IMG/VR virus record: IMGVR_UViG_3300021399_000098
DNA length: 64,000 bases
Reading direction: 5' to 3' (one strand)
Origin: a virus
Lineage: Duplodnaviria; Caudoviricetes
Position 1 is the first letter of the stretch. Each line of letters begins with the position of its first letter. Below, in pieces: positions 1 to 12,629 of this stretch. Made by a program: the position numbers and the translations under genes. Below the pieces are notes generated by a model, which was not told the origin of the DNA, did no database searches, and saw only the letters and a list, made by a program, of their open reading frames with translations.

Positions 1-185
1 AACCATCTTGCTTATGTTGTATTTTAAACCTAGGACTTCTTTCTGTAGCTCTAGATTATTGATGAGCAAGTTAGATATGTAACGTTGACTTGTTTCTTTC
101 CATTTGCTTTGCTTTGCTTGATACTATCATATGCATATTTATTAAGCTTATTCAATTCAAAAAATTCTTCCAATGTATTATCCAT
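1..185 (-). pseudogene. 5' end of DGR reverse transcriptase, apparently frameshifted (partial)
   Basis: ATG at 185 reads MDNTLEEFFELNKLNKYAYDSIKQSK, then reaches TAG. The shifted frame reads SKWKETSQRYISNLLINNLELQKEVLGLKYNISKMV, resembling DGR RT N-termini. It sits directly after TR and spacer. The catalytic motifs lie outside the window. Confidence 0.7.
103..117 (-). repeat. (GCAAA)x3 tandem repeat at the RT frameshift
   Basis: Plus strand reads tttgc tttgc tttgc; removing one unit gives in-frame ...SIKQSKWKETSQRY... Confidence 0.9.
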
Positions 186-340
186 TGTTTAAAATAAATT
201 ATAAAAAAAGCAAGGTGCTTATAGTTCCATTTGACGTATCAAGGAACGTCACCTTGCATATTTACCACATCTTCAGTGGAAGGTTCGATTCTCCTTATCA
301 AACTGAACCATCGTAATATCTGTATATTACCAGGTCAGAT
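186..340 (-). ncRNA. DGR spacer RNA segment between TR and RT, structured
   Basis: Nested stems gcaaggtg(210-217)/caccttgc(250-257), gttcc/ggaac, ttga/tcaa; also ccac/gtgg and ggttc/gaacc. Confidence 0.6.
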
Positions 341-433
341 GTTAATCGCAGCAACGTAATTGGTATTGTTAGCATTGTTATTGTTAGCATTACCATTGTT
401 GTTCACATTGCAGGCATTAGAAGACGAAGCAAC
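341..433 (-). repeat. DGR template repeat (TR)
   Basis: Non-coding, AAY-codon-rich copy of the VR: gttgcttcgtcttctaatgcctgcaatgtgaacaacaatggtaatgctaacaataacaatgctaacaataccaattacgttgctgcgattaac. Confidence 0.95.
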
Positions 434-464
434 CTTACAGAACCAAACCTATATCATATAATTA

Positions 465-905
465 TTATTTATTTTCGAGTGCTGTTTTAAATTTGTTACC
501 GCTTTTTCTCCAAGCTTTAAGACTGTTTATCATCTTTGCAATAGTCTCTATGTATTCCACGTATTTATTATCATTAACCTTAAGCCTCATCATTATTCTA
601 TGCAAATGAGTTAATATTGCATAGCAAGTGCCTATCGATTTTCCTATATTAGTTCTTCTCTCTTCATATTCAGTCACACAAGTAGGATATATAGAATTAG
701 CTATCTTTATGTAAAATAATAACTTGTCTGTTAAATCTTCAAGACTCTTGCACCTAATGTCAAGGAATATATAGTTCCTTTCAATTAATTCCTTACTAGC
801 ATAAAACTTGTGTTCAACAAGATTATCAATATTATCAGCCAATTTAAAATAAAGGCTCTCAAATTCAATACTACTTTTATTTCTCTTATTCTTTACAACA
901 CTCAT
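465..905 (-). CDS. avd: DGR accessory protein, Avd-like four-helix bundle
   Basis: 146 aa, basic and helical, starts MSVVKNKR, ends ..LKAWRKS..; lies between target gene and TR. Confidence 0.8.
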   Translation of the reverse strand: MSVVKNKRNKSSIEFESLYFKLADNIDNLVEHKFYASKELIERNYIFLDIRCKSLEDLTDKLLFYIKIANSIYPTCVTEYEERRTNIGKSIGTCYAILTHLHRIMMRLKVNDNKYVEYIETIAKMINSLKAWRKSGNKFKTALENK

Positions 906-938
906 AACAGTCTATATTAAAAACATTTTTTATTTATC

Positions 939-965
939 ATTGCTACCCCACAAGAGGGTAGCAAT
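939..965 (-). other. Hairpin downstream of VR (DGR target-recognition hairpin and/or terminator)
   Basis: 10-bp stem attgctaccc/gggtagcaat with a 7-nt loop, about 20 nt past the target stop codon. Confidence 0.7.
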
Positions 966-986
966 TCTGAGTAAAATCCTTTTTCC

Positions 987-3929
987 TTACGCAAAAAGGA
1001 TAAGCGCAGCAACGTAATGGGCACGGTCAACACCGCGATAGTCAGCAGCACCAGTGTCGTGCACACGGCAGGCACTAGAAGACGAAGCAACATCTCTAAG
1101 CCAAGGGTATCTGCCCTCGAATATCTCGTTCATATTGTACACTCTGAAAACATCAAGCTGACGGCAAGCTTCGCCAGTATCATATCCACTTGAACTCCAT
1201 ACAATGCTTCCATATACTTGTACCTCTGATAATGCGCATATCTTTTGGTCAGCATACCAAGCCCAAGAAGAAGAACAACCTCCAGCATTACCAAATCTGT
1301 TATAGCCGCTTGTGTTAACTGCTGTTGAATATAACTTATAATGACTCTTTATATTATTACTACCAAGGTCTCCTTCAACATATGGTAGAACTGTGGTTTC
1401 TAAATAATATTGCAAGTCACAGCTAGCATAACCAGCAGCAGCCGTACCAGTTGTCCAAGTTCCGTCTGTTGAATGAGTGTTCTGACTTGTTGATGTACTA
1501 TTACTACTGTTCCAAACGTAAGTATCATTTGTGTCAACAATGATACCAATGTGGTTATAGTCCAAACGATTAGGTGTTGAAGTACCTTTCATTGTATTAA
1601 GTCCTGCTATAACATAGTTATATGTTTTTCCATTATTGGTTGTAGTACAATAGTCACCAACTCTCATTCCATATTTTTCAAGGTCTTGGTCAGCTACTGC
1701 CTTTTTCAAAGTAGATATAAATGTGGCTTTATCCCACAACTTTCTTGTTCTACGTCTGATTGTATCAAGTTTCAATTTTTCTTCACTTGTTAAGTGAATA
1801 TCACTATCTGCTACATGTTCTTCAGTAGGTGTTAATCTTTTATCTAAGTTTGTTAGTGCAGCAGCTACTGTTTCACTTTGCCCACTTAGGTCATCTACAG
1901 CAGTTTTATCAGCTTTATTTGACAATGCTGTATTCACTTGTGTTGCACTTGAATAACTACTTGTGTTTTGGAATGCCATTGTGCCAACAGCACCAGTCAA
2001 ACTGTTAATAGCAGTGCTTGAAGCTGTGATTGCATCAAGAGTAGACTTGTTACTATGATTGTGAGCACTAGTTGCAGCAGTATCCCAAGAAGATGTCTTA
2101 GCTGTTGTAATACCATCTAATACTGTCTTATTATCATGACTATGTTTAGCAGTATATGCTTCATCCCATTGTCCTTGCTTTAATGTTGTTGGAATAGAAT
2201 ATCCATCACTGAATTTAACATCGAACTTACCACTTTCTGTAATTGCTGTAGTTGCAGCAGAAAGACCTGTAGGAAGTCCAATCTGTACGCTAGTCACAGT
2301 ACCTACATTACTTGTCTTACTATTCCAATTGGTAATATCAGTAGAAGATATACCATCCAATACAGACTTATTACTATGTGTATGGCTATCAGTAGCAGCT
2401 CCATCCCAGTTACTTACCTTTGTAGATGTAATACCACTTATAGCAGCAATATTGGTGGCAAGAGAATCAAGGTTAGTCTTCTCAGTAGTTGACATATGTA
2501 CTGTGCTTGCTGTATGCGCAGTAAATGTAGAAGTATTAACCTTACCACTTGTAGCAGCCTCAATAGCAGTGTCTGTTTGTGCTGTGGTATAGTAATTATC
2601 AGCTTCAAAAATGTCACCGATATTGAGTTCAGTATCTGTCTTACCAGCTGCTGTATTCCAAGTAATTACAAGATATGTTGTACCACTCTTTGTTTCAAGG
2701 GTTACACTATCAACCATACCATCTACCAAGAATGTAGATGCATTAAATGATGACAATACACTACCAGCAGTATTCTTAAGCTGAATATAATGACTCTCAC
2801 TATCATAAGCTACAGTAACACCAACACCACTATAGATGTGTTTTGCTTCTATAAGGTTATCACTATTAGTTATACCAGTAGATACACCCTTTGCAGCAGC
2901 AGTACCAAGTGTAGGCTTATTCTGAATGTATGAATCAGCAGTTGTAGCTGTTTCTGTCCAGTCAGCTTGTACGTTTACTTCAGCACCACTAGCGATATTA
3001 TCAAGCTTTGTCTTTAATGCGTCTGTAAAGTCATTTGATGACAAGTCTTTACCACTTACTTTATCAACCTTATTACCTATAGCTGTATCTACAGCGCCAC
3101 TGTAAGTATTGAAATCAGAGGTATTAAGCTTGTTATCTACGCTATTCCACTTGCTCTTATCATCTGCTGTTACGTGTATAACTGAATCTGCTGTGTGAGC
3201 AGTAACAGTGCCACTAAGTGTATTAGTAGTAGCAGTAGTAGTATAAGCTGTCATTCCAGTTACATCTTGTTTACCACTAATGTCAGCACTTGTTAAATAG
3301 TTTTGTTCACCAACCCAAGTCTTAGTAGCCATATCATTCGTTACTGTTTGAACATAGGCACTTGTTGCAAATCCATTATCATTTACTAAGTCAGATGTCT
3401 TTGAAGGTATTGTTGGCTTGTCTGTAAGGTCATTGTAACTGCCGCTGAAATCAGACTTATTATTCCAGTTAGTCTTATCGGCAGCAGTAACGTGAATATC
3501 AGTGTTTGTAATATGGGTATTCACAGTACCGCTAACTGCATCTAAGTCAGCATCATTTGCCTTCAAAACAAAGGCTGTAGATAATTCAGTAGCACCACTT
3601 GTCTCACTTTTCTTGTAGTAATCGCTTAAATCTGTTGGGGTATATGCTGACGCATCTAATTTTCTACCATTAAGGTCATCAATTGCTTCAGTAACAGTTG
3701 CATCGTTGTTTGTGAACCCACTACCAAGTTTTTTCTCAGTATAATAATTGTCTGATGAGAATGTTGTTATAGCACTATTCTCATTTCTAATTGATATTGT
3801 TTCCACACCTTCAGCATAGTTAATGGCAATCTCACCATCCACCAATTTATCTGGAGATGGCAATTGTGGCAAACCATTAATCTTTAGCTTACTTTTAATG
3901 TGAGAAACGTGTTCAACGTTTTTTGCCAT
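987..3929 (-). CDS. DGR target: tail fibre/receptor-binding protein with C-terminal CLec-type variable domain
   Basis: 980 aa; N-terminal L.DGEIAINY motif (Mtd N-domain-like); T/S-rich fibre repeats (H.H.NK..LD.I); C-terminal LSEVQVYG...YPWLRD plus VR. Confidence 0.85.
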   Translation of the reverse strand: MAKNVEHVSHIKSKLKINGLPQLPSPDKLVDGEIAINYAEGVETISIRNENSAITTFSSDNYYTEKKLGSGFTNNDATVTEAIDDLNGRKLDASAYTPTDLSDYYKKSETSGATELSTAFVLKANDADLDAVSGTVNTHITNTDIHVTAADKTNWNNKSDFSGSYNDLTDKPTIPSKTSDLVNDNGFATSAYVQTVTNDMATKTWVGEQNYLTSADISGKQDVTGMTAYTTTATTNTLSGTVTAHTADSVIHVTADDKSKWNSVDNKLNTSDFNTYSGAVDTAIGNKVDKVSGKDLSSNDFTDALKTKLDNIASGAEVNVQADWTETATTADSYIQNKPTLGTAAAKGVSTGITNSDNLIEAKHIYSGVGVTVAYDSESHYIQLKNTAGSVLSSFNASTFLVDGMVDSVTLETKSGTTYLVITWNTAAGKTDTELNIGDIFEADNYYTTAQTDTAIEAATSGKVNTSTFTAHTASTVHMSTTEKTNLDSLATNIAAISGITSTKVSNWDGAATDSHTHSNKSVLDGISSTDITNWNSKTSNVGTVTSVQIGLPTGLSAATTAITESGKFDVKFSDGYSIPTTLKQGQWDEAYTAKHSHDNKTVLDGITTAKTSSWDTAATSAHNHSNKSTLDAITASSTAINSLTGAVGTMAFQNTSSYSSATQVNTALSNKADKTAVDDLSGQSETVAAALTNLDKRLTPTEEHVADSDIHLTSEEKLKLDTIRRRTRKLWDKATFISTLKKAVADQDLEKYGMRVGDYCTTTNNGKTYNYVIAGLNTMKGTSTPNRLDYNHIGIIVDTNDTYVWNSSNSTSTSQNTHSTDGTWTTGTAAAGYASCDLQYYLETTVLPYVEGDLGSNNIKSHYKLYSTAVNTSGYNRFGNAGGCSSSWAWYADQKICALSEVQVYGSIVWSSSGYDTGEACRQLDVFRVYNMNEIFEGRYPWLRDVASSSSACRVHDTGAADYRGVDRAHYVAALILFA
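999..1091 (-). repeat. DGR variable repeat (VR)
   Basis: Encodes VASSSSACRVHDTGAADYRGVDRAHYVAALI; 22 mismatches to TR, 21 of them at TR adenines. Confidence 0.95.
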
Positions 3930-9359: not shown

Positions 9360-11730
9360 GTTCAATATATGTAATTATATCCTTTGGTGACTTAACACCA
9401 TTTGTTATCTTATCGGCATCTATGCCGTCACCCCAAGAGCAGCCTATGAATGGTATGTTTGCATTTCTTGACTCAGCACCATCAGAAGCTCTATCACCAA
9501 TGCTTAAGCATTCTTCTGGGGCAATTCCCATTATATTAAGCACCTCTCTCATACGAGCAGCTTTAGGCCATCCACTTCTGTCACCCTTAACTGCTACTGG
9601 GTGCAGCCCATAATACTTAATCGTCTCTTGGGCGAATAACTGATTACACTTTGTCACAACAGCCCATTGTATTCCGTTGTTTTCCAAATACTTTATCAAG
9701 TCTTTTATGCCACTATAGATTATGTTCTTTCCAACATACTTCGAAGCCTCTATCCAAGCTTTTTTCTTGTCTGTGGCAGTTCCCTTAACCGTCCTTGTCT
9801 GTCTTCTGATTTCCAACGTTCCGTCAGTGTTGAAAAGTGTATAGTCAAAATCGAATATAACGCCCTTTACACCACCACCTTCTTCAAATTCCTCTTTGAT
9901 AAGGTTTTTACGTTGGTTTGCATTTTCAGACAATGAATAAGCATTGGTTAAACAAAGGATATGCGTATCATCAACACCATTATTATGTAGAGCATTTATA
10001 AGAAGCTTAAGAGTTGAACCTGTACTGATGTCCTCATCAAACAACAAATAATACCTTGACCTAAACATTTCAAAATAATTAGGGTCATTTACAGCCTCAT
10101 TATTAGCAACTATGTACATGTCCTTCACATACTTACGATACTTACCGCCAAAGTCAACTATTTTTCCTCTTTGAAGGCTGAAATCGATTTTAACACCAGT
10201 TGTCAATAGCTTTTCTTTGTAGAAATTATAAACTTTGTGCATTTCATTTGATGCTTCGAAGAACTTTTGAAGCATTGCCTTATTTGCATATAGGGCATCG
10301 TGAATGGCTTTTTCGTAAGTCTTATAATCATTTGAAAGTTTGATGTGAGAATTGTTAGCGAACAAGTTGTTTTTGAAATACTCAAGCAAATTATCCTTCT
10401 CCTCCAAATTTGAAGAACAAATCATAAATGATAACTCCTTTAGTATCAACTGTATTCTATCCAAAGAAATCTTATCCCCTAGTATTTCAGTTAGATAATC
10501 ACCATACTCATTGAAATAGTTTTCTATTGGTTGTCCGATGAAATATACAATTTCAGAAATACCCTTCTGCTTTGCGGTTTCCCTAAAACTTGCTATCTGT
10601 TTTTCATCTACACCGTCATTTCTCATCATTTCCTCATCCATCTTCACGTTAACCATGTCTCTCTGGAAGAAATTCCTTTCATATGGAACTCCAAGCTTAC
10701 TAGACAGTCTTGTACAATAATACAAGTTGAACTTTGAAGACGATGGAGCATCAACTATTACAGATGGCTTGAAAGATTCACATTTCAACGCATAAGCAGC
10801 AGCCATTATAGACTTGTCTATAAATTTGGCAATTGATGTGTAATTATTGTCACCATAGCCATATTGTTTCCTAGTCAAATCGTCTGGACCATTCAAAGAG
10901 AAATTACCGCCAATATTAGGCTTTACTCCATTATCATAAGTCAATTCAAATGGCTTGTATGCACGGCTTTTACCTTGTATTTTCTCCCTTTTTGAAGCAT
11001 CTATTCCAAAGTTCTCTGCATTTTTGTCATTGCCCCTAATGTATCCATGTTTAATAATGTCACTAAAGTTAAAGTCAACCATTCTAAACAATGAAATAAC
11101 ATTCACATTTGTGTAAGGAACTTTCATTAACCTATATCTAGGAACTCTACCTTGTGAAAACCTTTCATCCTCCGCATTTTGTAAAGGTCTGTCGTATTGT
11201 GCAGCAGCCCTTTCAGCATTATTCAAGTTCACCATCAACTTACTAAGAACGGTGCTCATTTGTTCTCCTTGAGACAATGCCTTAATTGCCTTATTAGCAG
11301 CAGTTTTTGGACCTTTTTCAATCATTTGGTATGAATCCAAATTTATTGTCTTGAGAAACACCTTATATATGTTTTTAATATTTGACTGGTCAAAACCCTT
11401 TATAAAATTAATAACATCACGATACATCCTAGCAGTCTCTTTCAAACTCGCTCCTACCTTCTGCTGCTGGAACACATGCCACTTACGGCCAGGTTTACCC
11501 ATCCTAGACTGTTCAATAGAACCATCACCATTCACGATGTCGTTCCTACTGCCGAACAATCTAGTGTCTACACCTTGGTTGTCAACGTCTAACCTACTAG
11601 TGTTAATTGATGTGTTGAAAGTATTCGTATTTGGGTTATAGTTCACATTCAAACCTTCCTTTAACAATATGACGCTGTTTTCCCTAATATGTACTTTCTT
11701 TCGTTTTTTATCTGTTGAATACAAAATCAT
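9337..11730 (-). CDS. Phosphoribosyltransferase-like plus C-terminal HAD hydrolase fusion protein
   Basis: PRPP-binding loop YLLFDEDISTGSTL and APSSS; HAD motifs IFDFDYTL, VVT and IGDRASDG. Confidence 0.75.
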   Translation of the reverse strand: MILYSTDKKRKKVHIRENSVILLKEGLNVNYNPNTNTFNTSINTSRLDVDNQGVDTRLFGSRNDIVNGDGSIEQSRMGKPGRKWHVFQQQKVGASLKETARMYRDVINFIKGFDQSNIKNIYKVFLKTINLDSYQMIEKGPKTAANKAIKALSQGEQMSTVLSKLMVNLNNAERAAAQYDRPLQNAEDERFSQGRVPRYRLMKVPYTNVNVISLFRMVDFNFSDIIKHGYIRGNDKNAENFGIDASKREKIQGKSRAYKPFELTYDNGVKPNIGGNFSLNGPDDLTRKQYGYGDNNYTSIAKFIDKSIMAAAYALKCESFKPSVIVDAPSSSKFNLYYCTRLSSKLGVPYERNFFQRDMVNVKMDEEMMRNDGVDEKQIASFRETAKQKGISEIVYFIGQPIENYFNEYGDYLTEILGDKISLDRIQLILKELSFMICSSNLEEKDNLLEYFKNNLFANNSHIKLSNDYKTYEKAIHDALYANKAMLQKFFEASNEMHKVYNFYKEKLLTTGVKIDFSLQRGKIVDFGGKYRKYVKDMYIVANNEAVNDPNYFEMFRSRYYLLFDEDISTGSTLKLLINALHNNGVDDTHILCLTNAYSLSENANQRKNLIKEEFEEGGGVKGVIFDFDYTLFNTDGTLEIRRQTRTVKGTATDKKKAWIEASKYVGKNIIYSGIKDLIKYLENNGIQWAVVTKCNQLFAQETIKYYGLHPVAVKGDRSGWPKAARMREVLNIMGIAPEECLSIGDRASDGAESRNANIPFIGCSWGDGIDADKITNGVKSPKDIITYIEQKNKGTV

Positions 11731-12629
11731 ACAACTTTTTCTTTCTTTAATATCTTTATGTCTTTAGGGTTGAATATGACATAGTTTGTGTTTTTAGTTC
11801 CATCTGCCGTAACATCAACCCATTTAATACCCTTATATCCTTCTCTGTACAAAAATTCAGAAGTTTCCTTGTCATCGCCAACAAGTGATGCTATCGTTCC
11901 ATAAACATCACCGCCAGTTTGACAATCGCACAAATACTTACATTCCTCATTCCAAAATTCATTTTCATAGCCCTTATATATCTCCCTACCATACTCATTT
12001 TCAGTTGTATAGTATTTGAAGAAATCTCTAGCTATTTTGGTTGCAGCCGCCCTAGAAATGCTTTTATATGTTAAATAACGCCCACTTGGAACTTTTGCAG
12101 TGTACACAAAGCCACCTCTTGCATACTCCTTTGCGCCCTCTGGATTATCAATCAAATATACACCATATCCATACGCTTGCTGACCCCAACCACTTGATAT
12201 GAAAGCTAAATCAAATTCTTGGAAATCAGCTTGAAAGCCATGAAACAAATCCAATTCAGTTATGGACTCCATTATGGCACGTCTTATTCTGTTTTCATTT
12301 TTCTCCCATTCATAATCGGCATTATCTTTTTCACCATTATAGGTAAAATAGTTTCCATCATTCCAACTTATCTGCTTTGGTTGCTTTGGCTGTTTTGGAG
12401 GCTTCTGAGACGCTTTTGCCACTCTTGCCTTATCGTAGTCCACCAACTCTTTAAAATGCTGCGTAAGGGCTGTATAAACACTTTTATGATAGCCTCTCTT
12501 GCCACCAATCTGCTTCTCCCTATAGCCAATTCCTTGTGCCACATGATGAATTGCAGGCAAAGAAACATCTTTCCCACAAGCATTTCTGAACCTTTTCCTT
12601 ATTTCTTTAGCTGATAATAAATCGTACAT
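11727..12629 (-). CDS. Protein with C-terminal ADP-ribosyltransferase-like (ART-PolyVal-type) domain
   Basis: LFHG...FQEFD...GWGQQAYGYGVYL...AKEYA...GYKGI...NYVIFNP; start moved to MYDLL, which follows a TATTTATA site. Confidence 0.65.
   Translation of the reverse strand: MYDLLSAKEIRKRFRNACGKDVSLPAIHHVAQGIGYREKQIGGKRGYHKSVYTALTQHFKELVDYDKARVAKASQKPPKQPKQPKQISWNDGNYFTYNGEKDNADYEWEKNENRIRRAIMESITELDLFHGFQADFQEFDLAFISSGWGQQAYGYGVYLIDNPEGAKEYARGGFVYTAKVPSGRYLTYKSISRAAATKIARDFFKYYTTENEYGREIYKGYENEFWNEECKYLCDCQTGGDVYGTIASLVGDDKETSEFLYREGYKGIKWVDVTADGTKNTNYVIFNPKDIKILKKEKVV

Follow-up and report, generated by a model that had tools for sequence, protein, structure and literature searches.

The reverse transcriptase (RT) gene of a DGR in a giant phage is broken by the third unit of a 5-bp tandem repeat, most likely a recent, one-off duplication that abolishes RT function and freezes the variable repeat (VR) of a fibre-like protein. 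The locus lies at the left end of a 64,000-nt stretch of Caudoviricetes DNA (IMG/VR record IMGVR_UViG_3300021399_000098), which was analysed as a whole and is referred to here as the window. From the comparison of contigs and proteins set out below, we infer that RT activity has been lost, that the lesion is recent, and that switching between repeat lengths has no selected role.

Results

An extra repeat unit breaks the RT reading frame

All features of the cassette are encoded on the minus strand (Table 1). The RT gene starts at ATG 185 and continues with ...TATGATAGTATCAAGCAAAGCAAAGCAAATGGAAAG; as it stands, this frame (frame 0) yields only the 44-aa product MDNTLEEFFELNKLNKYAYDSIKQSKANGKKQVNVTYLTCSSII, closed by TAG at 53–51. 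Tandem Repeats Finder placed the repeat at 103–119 (period 5, 3.4 copies, 100% matches). No other perfect pentamer array in the 64-kb window has as many as three units, against 82 with two. The number of units sets the reading frame of the RT, three being out of frame and two in frame. The −1 frame is open from position 123, with TAG (126–124) and TGA (129–127) immediately upstream, and runs off the left window edge (open frame 1–69, MLINNLELQKEVLGLKYNISKMV; ...WKETSQRYISNLLINNLELQKEVLGLKYNISKMV); its earliest possible in-frame starts are TTG 69 and ATG 6. An active DGR needs an intact, translatable RT ORF, and here the frame is lost at codon 26 through the duplication.

Removing one unit from the array gives IKQSKWKETSQRY, an exact match to the closest full-length relatives, and the N-terminus of the 44-aa ORF matches that of the 379-aa relatives P0002 and P0003. 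An earlier reading of this DNA, made from its letters alone (the sequence-only reading), had pointed to (GCAAA)x3 within a frame running from ATG 185 to a TAG, to the fusion of two frames on deletion of one unit, and to a downstream frame with stops just upstream and no early start. All three observations were borne out, and the fusion that it predicted is the actual sequence of the 379-aa relatives.

Table 1. Features of the DGR locus (window coordinates)
Feature	Position	Strand	Remark
(GCAAA)x3 tandem repeat	103..117	-	third unit (5 bp, duplicated) is absent from all relatives
Truncated 44-aa ORF	51..185	-	RT residues 1-26 in frame, 18 out-of-frame residues, then TAG
RT body start (YQAKQSKWKETSQRY...)	1..123	-	-1 frame; 361 aa in total including the part past the window edge, with YMDD
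Template repeat (TR), 93 nt	342..434	-	
146-aa accessory gene, Avd position	465..905	-	
Hairpin downstream of VR, 10-11 bp stem	939..965	-	fold z -6.27
Variable repeat (VR), target gene 3' end	1000..1092	-	
980-aa target gene (fibre-like), carries VR	987..3929	-	

The RT is otherwise intact beyond the window edge

The part of the gene lying past the edge was recovered from contigs that matched exactly either the 146-aa accessory protein or the called RT fragment; these included a 71-kb Logan contig (L016) and a 1,971-bp JGI contig (L019), both with three units. L016 showed 0 mismatches to the window over 10,905 shared nt, and its −1 frame (10783–11868) extends for 361 aa to a stop codon, carrying YMDD and LGSEAPQ without further interruption. 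The RT fragment is also on record on contigs of up to 401,247 bp, the host genome being that of a roughly 400-kb phage.

The product of the −1 frame matched Pfam RVT_1 (E 5e-18) and the PHROG reverse transcriptase family (1.8e-67), and its best match among solved structures (PDB) was bRT, the DGR RT of a Bordetella phage (8ub7), at low similarity (E 1.6e-9). It is an RT with a YxDD motif, related to those of DGRs and group II introns, as the sequence-only reading had supposed of the downstream frame; the intact continuation of a YxDD enzyme past the left edge, which that reading had wished to see confirmed, is provided by L016. Compared with the intact 379-aa relatives, the only frame-breaking difference is the 5-bp insertion, and no stop codon occurs in frame. 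When 37 sequences with identities down to 61% were aligned, the window RT proved to keep all of the 100+ family-invariant residues, which argues for a young lesion. As the frame has no further interruption and every invariant residue is kept, the 5-bp insertion is the sole lesion of the RT; the additional damage that would have marked simple decay was not found. No second RT able to act in trans was detected in the window by tblastn.

The remainder of the cassette resembles that of BPP-1

TR and VR differ at 23 of 93 positions, with 21 of these mismatches falling on TR adenines and hitting 21 of the 31 adenines present, as is characteristic of a DGR. Also in keeping with a DGR, the VR lies at the end of the target gene (stop codon 987–989), the conserved GC-rich 3' end ATTACGTTGCTGCG is shared, and the hairpin follows the VR. 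The pairing of this hairpin is kept in L020 (5220–5250), where G>C in one arm is matched by C>G in the other. Full-length relatives of the accessory gene were found in 15 viral contigs at 53–98% identity. Its product had no match in Pfam, NCBIfam or PHROG, and none to the Avd family; as the gene matches no Avd model, it owes the name Avd solely to its position. The earlier statement that TR, avd and hairpin are intact can accordingly be kept for the TR and the hairpin and extended to the VR and the target, while the accessory gene, though intact, is an avd in position alone.

The arrangement is that of Bordetella phage BPP-1 (bRT-Avd-TR-VR, with the tail-fibre gene Mtd), sharing the order target (VR), hairpin, accessory gene, TR and RT, the adenine-specific TR/VR mismatches and the location of the VR at the C-terminus of a fibre-like protein. 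It differs from BPP-1 in the lack of an Avd family match for the accessory protein, in the size of the phage (roughly 400 kb) and in the frameshifted RT. Neither the window nor L016 contains a second VR matching the TR. About 1.8 kb past the left edge, downstream of the RT, L016 (12650–13312) encodes a 220-aa protein with a weak match to Lcl_C (lectin-type) and no resemblance to the TR; this gene may be an orphan former DGR target.

Relatives carry two units or an interrupted repeat

The −1 frame product had 2,585 relatives in a protein search. The 100% match is a truncated 322-aa call, and the next-best RT relatives, at 91–92% identity, are 379 aa long and begin MDTLEEFFEL(S/N)KLNKYAYDSIKQSKWKETSQRY. 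The close proteins examined were P0002, P0003 and 14 members of the 39-member cluster of P0003 (15 of which were listed), and every N-terminus present among these close relatives reads IKQSKWKE or TKQSKWKE. At the nucleotide level, the close full-length relatives (91–94% identity, 379 aa) have either two units (AAGCAAAGCAAATGG in L020, L021, L033 and L034) or a repeat interrupted by a synonymous CAG (AAGCAGAGCAAATGG or AAGCAGAGCAAA in L022, L023 and L024), the latter accounting for three of the eight close contigs without the extra unit. Thirteen more distant relatives encode [TR/K]QSRWKE without any 5-mer repeat. Since the relatives have either two units or an interrupted repeat, the window carries a 5-bp tandem duplication of an older two-unit repeat, and two units is the ancestral, in-frame state.

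Three units were confined to contigs probably derived from one sample. The closest two-unit allele in the searched collections sits on a background 93.7% identical to that of the window at the nucleotide level, and the close relatives examined, within a set of about 40, showed no polymorphism between two and three units on one background, no four-unit allele and no second three-unit allele. Neither blastn of window positions 1–1200 against phage records nor an exact search of viral contigs for a 45-mer found a match, and a strict pattern for alleles of one to four units had zero matches in metagenome and viral contigs. A looser pattern for the same alleles hit at least 143 loci, all of them chance matches, with none RT-like among the matches listed. 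The comparison with related genomes that had been proposed alongside the sequence-only reading therefore finds three units to be peculiar to the contigs of the window's own phage.

Variation was also seen at the other end of the gene. The last ~60 RT residues exist in two versions among otherwise near-identical relatives (L016:11690–11868 versus P0122/P0132; ...NDLNKIFI versus ...NDLKQLLD), as though recombination had left a boundary within the 3' part of the RT gene. Among P0126, P0131 and P0134 in the P0003 cluster, loss of the stop codon lengthens the RT of some by 3 aa and in one fuses it to the downstream DUF4376-like gene, giving a 598-aa protein.

The RT has been inactivated repeatedly in close relatives

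Close relatives carry at least four other RT-inactivating lesions, which are independent, unrelated and for the most part irreversible. The closest relative among viral contigs (L001, with an accessory protein 98% identical) carries a deletion from about TR nt 27 to RT nt 948 (L001:3420–3660); its accessory gene and target remain, along with a 63-aa tail of the RT. An internal deletion from RT nt 55 to about 760 has removed the catalytic core in L025 and L026 (L025:35–361), with the same junction in two sequencing runs. Eight contigs, mostly from gut metagenomes (L023/24 and L027–32), form an RT-dead lineage in which a poly-A run at codon 287 is longer by one A (L023:295–1428), and L023/24, the only contigs of that lineage reaching codon 31, have CAA>TAA there as well. 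In L035/36 the RT 3' end is replaced after nt 902 (L035:3415–3520) by sequence for a lectin-like C-terminus (...AWRVYATDGYLSRNRKSYNFYVRAF), which suggests that a deletion has joined the RT to a variable-protein gene further downstream. P0129, the only other protein starting at a downstream Met, owes this start to a CAA>TAA nonsense codon and not to a change in the repeat.

Irreversible losses of this kind argue for plain loss over regulated switching, and recurrent plain loss is the simpler frame in which to place the three-unit allele.

A one-off null mutation is the best explanation

The two-unit direct repeat of the relatives is an accidental by-product of the codons AAG-CAA-AGC-AAA (K-Q-S-K). 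Replication slippage would have duplicated one unit and thrown the RT out of frame at codon 26. Translation from ATG 185 ends after 44 aa, and the −1 frame, which has no start of its own, holds both the invariant N-terminal-extension block and the catalytic domain in its entirety. With the catalytic domain in a frame that lacks a start, no working RT would be made, and the VR would be frozen in its heavily diversified state. A one-off inactivating duplication had been entered in the sequence-only reading as a fallback; it now gives the best fit, given the unrelated RT losses of the relatives and the lack of conservation of the repeat.

Degenerate DGRs without an RT offer a parallel, in that RT function is lost and the VR-bearing target is kept, and close relatives of the window show deletions and nonsense mutations of the RT gene; unlike them, the window has been caught at the very first step of decay, with one lesion and all else intact. 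Were exactly one unit lost, the RT would be restored, and revertants may arise in large phage populations, as holds for any tandem duplication. Slippage shortens a three-unit repeat more easily than a random lesion is reversed, and the cassette is otherwise intact; a subpopulation with an active RT may therefore coexist in the sample.

Reversible switching is unlikely

The main claim of the sequence-only reading was a candidate ON/OFF switch, that is, a contingency locus in which slipped-strand mispairing toggles between two units (RT on, fibre diversifying) and three units (RT off, fibre locked) and in which selection exploits the change. Its appeal is evident: the frame break falls exactly in a perfect tandem repeat, one unit fewer gives the family-consensus protein, the remainder of the DGR is intact, and no other pentamer array in the 64 kb reaches three units. 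As in the SSR contingency loci of Haemophilus and Neisseria surface genes, the number of units in a repeat within the ORF determines the frame.

The resemblance does not go much further, and we regard such a switch as unlikely. The tetra- and pentanucleotide tracts of Haemophilus and Neisseria are long and maintained by selection, with polymorphism both within a strain and from one strain to another; known contingency tracts of 4–5-nt units are usually much longer than the present one, and three units make a very short tract for phase variation by slippage. The window tract, by contrast, has three units only, is not conserved, and shows neither length polymorphism nor recurrence among the close relatives examined; a comparison at the level of contigs revealed no variation in repeat number among near-identical genomes. 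The tract is neither conserved nor extended beyond the needs of the protein. With no repeat in the 13 distant relatives and a synonymous CAG in three close ones, nothing appears to maintain it. The claim of a switch thus found no support. Its fuller form, in which the giant phage locks a successful receptor-binding variant and re-enables hypermutation by rare contraction of the tract, seems to us improbable; if true, it would amount to second-order control of mutagenesis.

Frameshifting, assembly error, a shortened RT and recoding

Some RT might still be made by −1 ribosomal frameshifting within the overlap of the 0 and −1 frames (window 123–51), for instance at U-GGA-AAG, leaving the DGR weakly active. 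The shift required is indeed −1, and A-AAG is a shift-prone motif in bacteria. Yet the overlap contains no canonical X XXY YYZ heptamer and no downstream stimulatory structure (fold z-score −0.27), and the two-frame layout is peculiar to the window's genome, every relative having a single ORF; the conserved pairing of slippery heptamer and structure that marks programmed −1 frameshifting is absent. A precedent of sorts is Quimbyvirus (Benler et al. 2021, PMC8008677), in which the DGR RT occupies three overlapping frames, programmed frameshifts and continued activity have been proposed, and the VR varies among near-identical genomes. The two cases are alike in that the DGR RT of a gut phage is broken by frame changes and VR variation is adenine-specific, but the break in the window occurs in one genome only, with no slippery site or structure, and we hold weak activity by this route to be a poor prospect.

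The extra unit could also be a sequencing or assembly error in a genome that truly has two. The sequence-only reading had put this on a par with its other explanations, and all three-unit contigs do probably come from one sample and hence share reads. Against it, the window record and the Logan and JGI assemblies all give the same three units at 100% identity; an artefact of one assembler is thereby set aside, although the reads behind these concordant assemblies are probably shared. Insertion of a whole 5-nt unit into a consensus is not a usual short-read error, and an error at this site is very unlikely.

Least credible is a functional, shortened RT initiated at TTG 69 or ATG 6, an outcome that the sequence-only reading had named as one that would overturn it. 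Gene callers do annotate a 322-aa product from ATG 6 (P0004), and the catalytic motifs all lie downstream of both codons. Such a product would, however, lack most of the N-terminal extension and the block QS.WK.T.QRY, which does not vary among 37 homologues with identities as low as 61%, and no relative uses either start. As this invariant block (QS[KR]WKxTxQRY) precedes both TTG 69 and ATG 6, neither is a plausible functional start. In the Bordetella phage RT, the N-terminal extension forms the interface with Avd and also binds the template:primer duplex, contacting the latter in part through a conserved Lys on an Avd-braced loop (bioRxiv 10.1101/2023.10.23.563531), and products begun at TTG 69 or ATG 6 would be without such a part.

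Recoding of the two TAG codons as sense was rejected, both because the TAG of the −1 frame is immediately preceded by a TGA and because the long ORFs and the RT of the window read through under table 11. A relative does depart from this code: on a 105-kb phage contig (IMGVR_UViG_3300011005_000064; L011:600–2005), in-frame TAG codons occur in the RT and the accessory gene at exactly the positions held by Gln in the family (STR*SRWKE, for example, in place of the invariant QSRWKE), a pattern that indicates TAG-to-Gln recoding.

Discussion

Taken alone, the locus is ordinary, a null allele of a DGR RT. Its modest value lies in showing DGR decay at its very outset, when a single lesion has struck the RT and left the TR, accessory gene, hairpin and target untouched. 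It also bears on annotation, as the 322-aa 'RT' in public records stems from a frameshifted gene and is truncated.

What goes beyond an ordinary null allele, and is somewhat interesting, is the repeated, independent loss of the DGR RT in this group of phages. Counting the window, the RT has been lost at least five separate times, through different mutations, with the diversified fibre gene retained. Such repeated loss suggests that diversification is used episodically and is then discarded or selected against.
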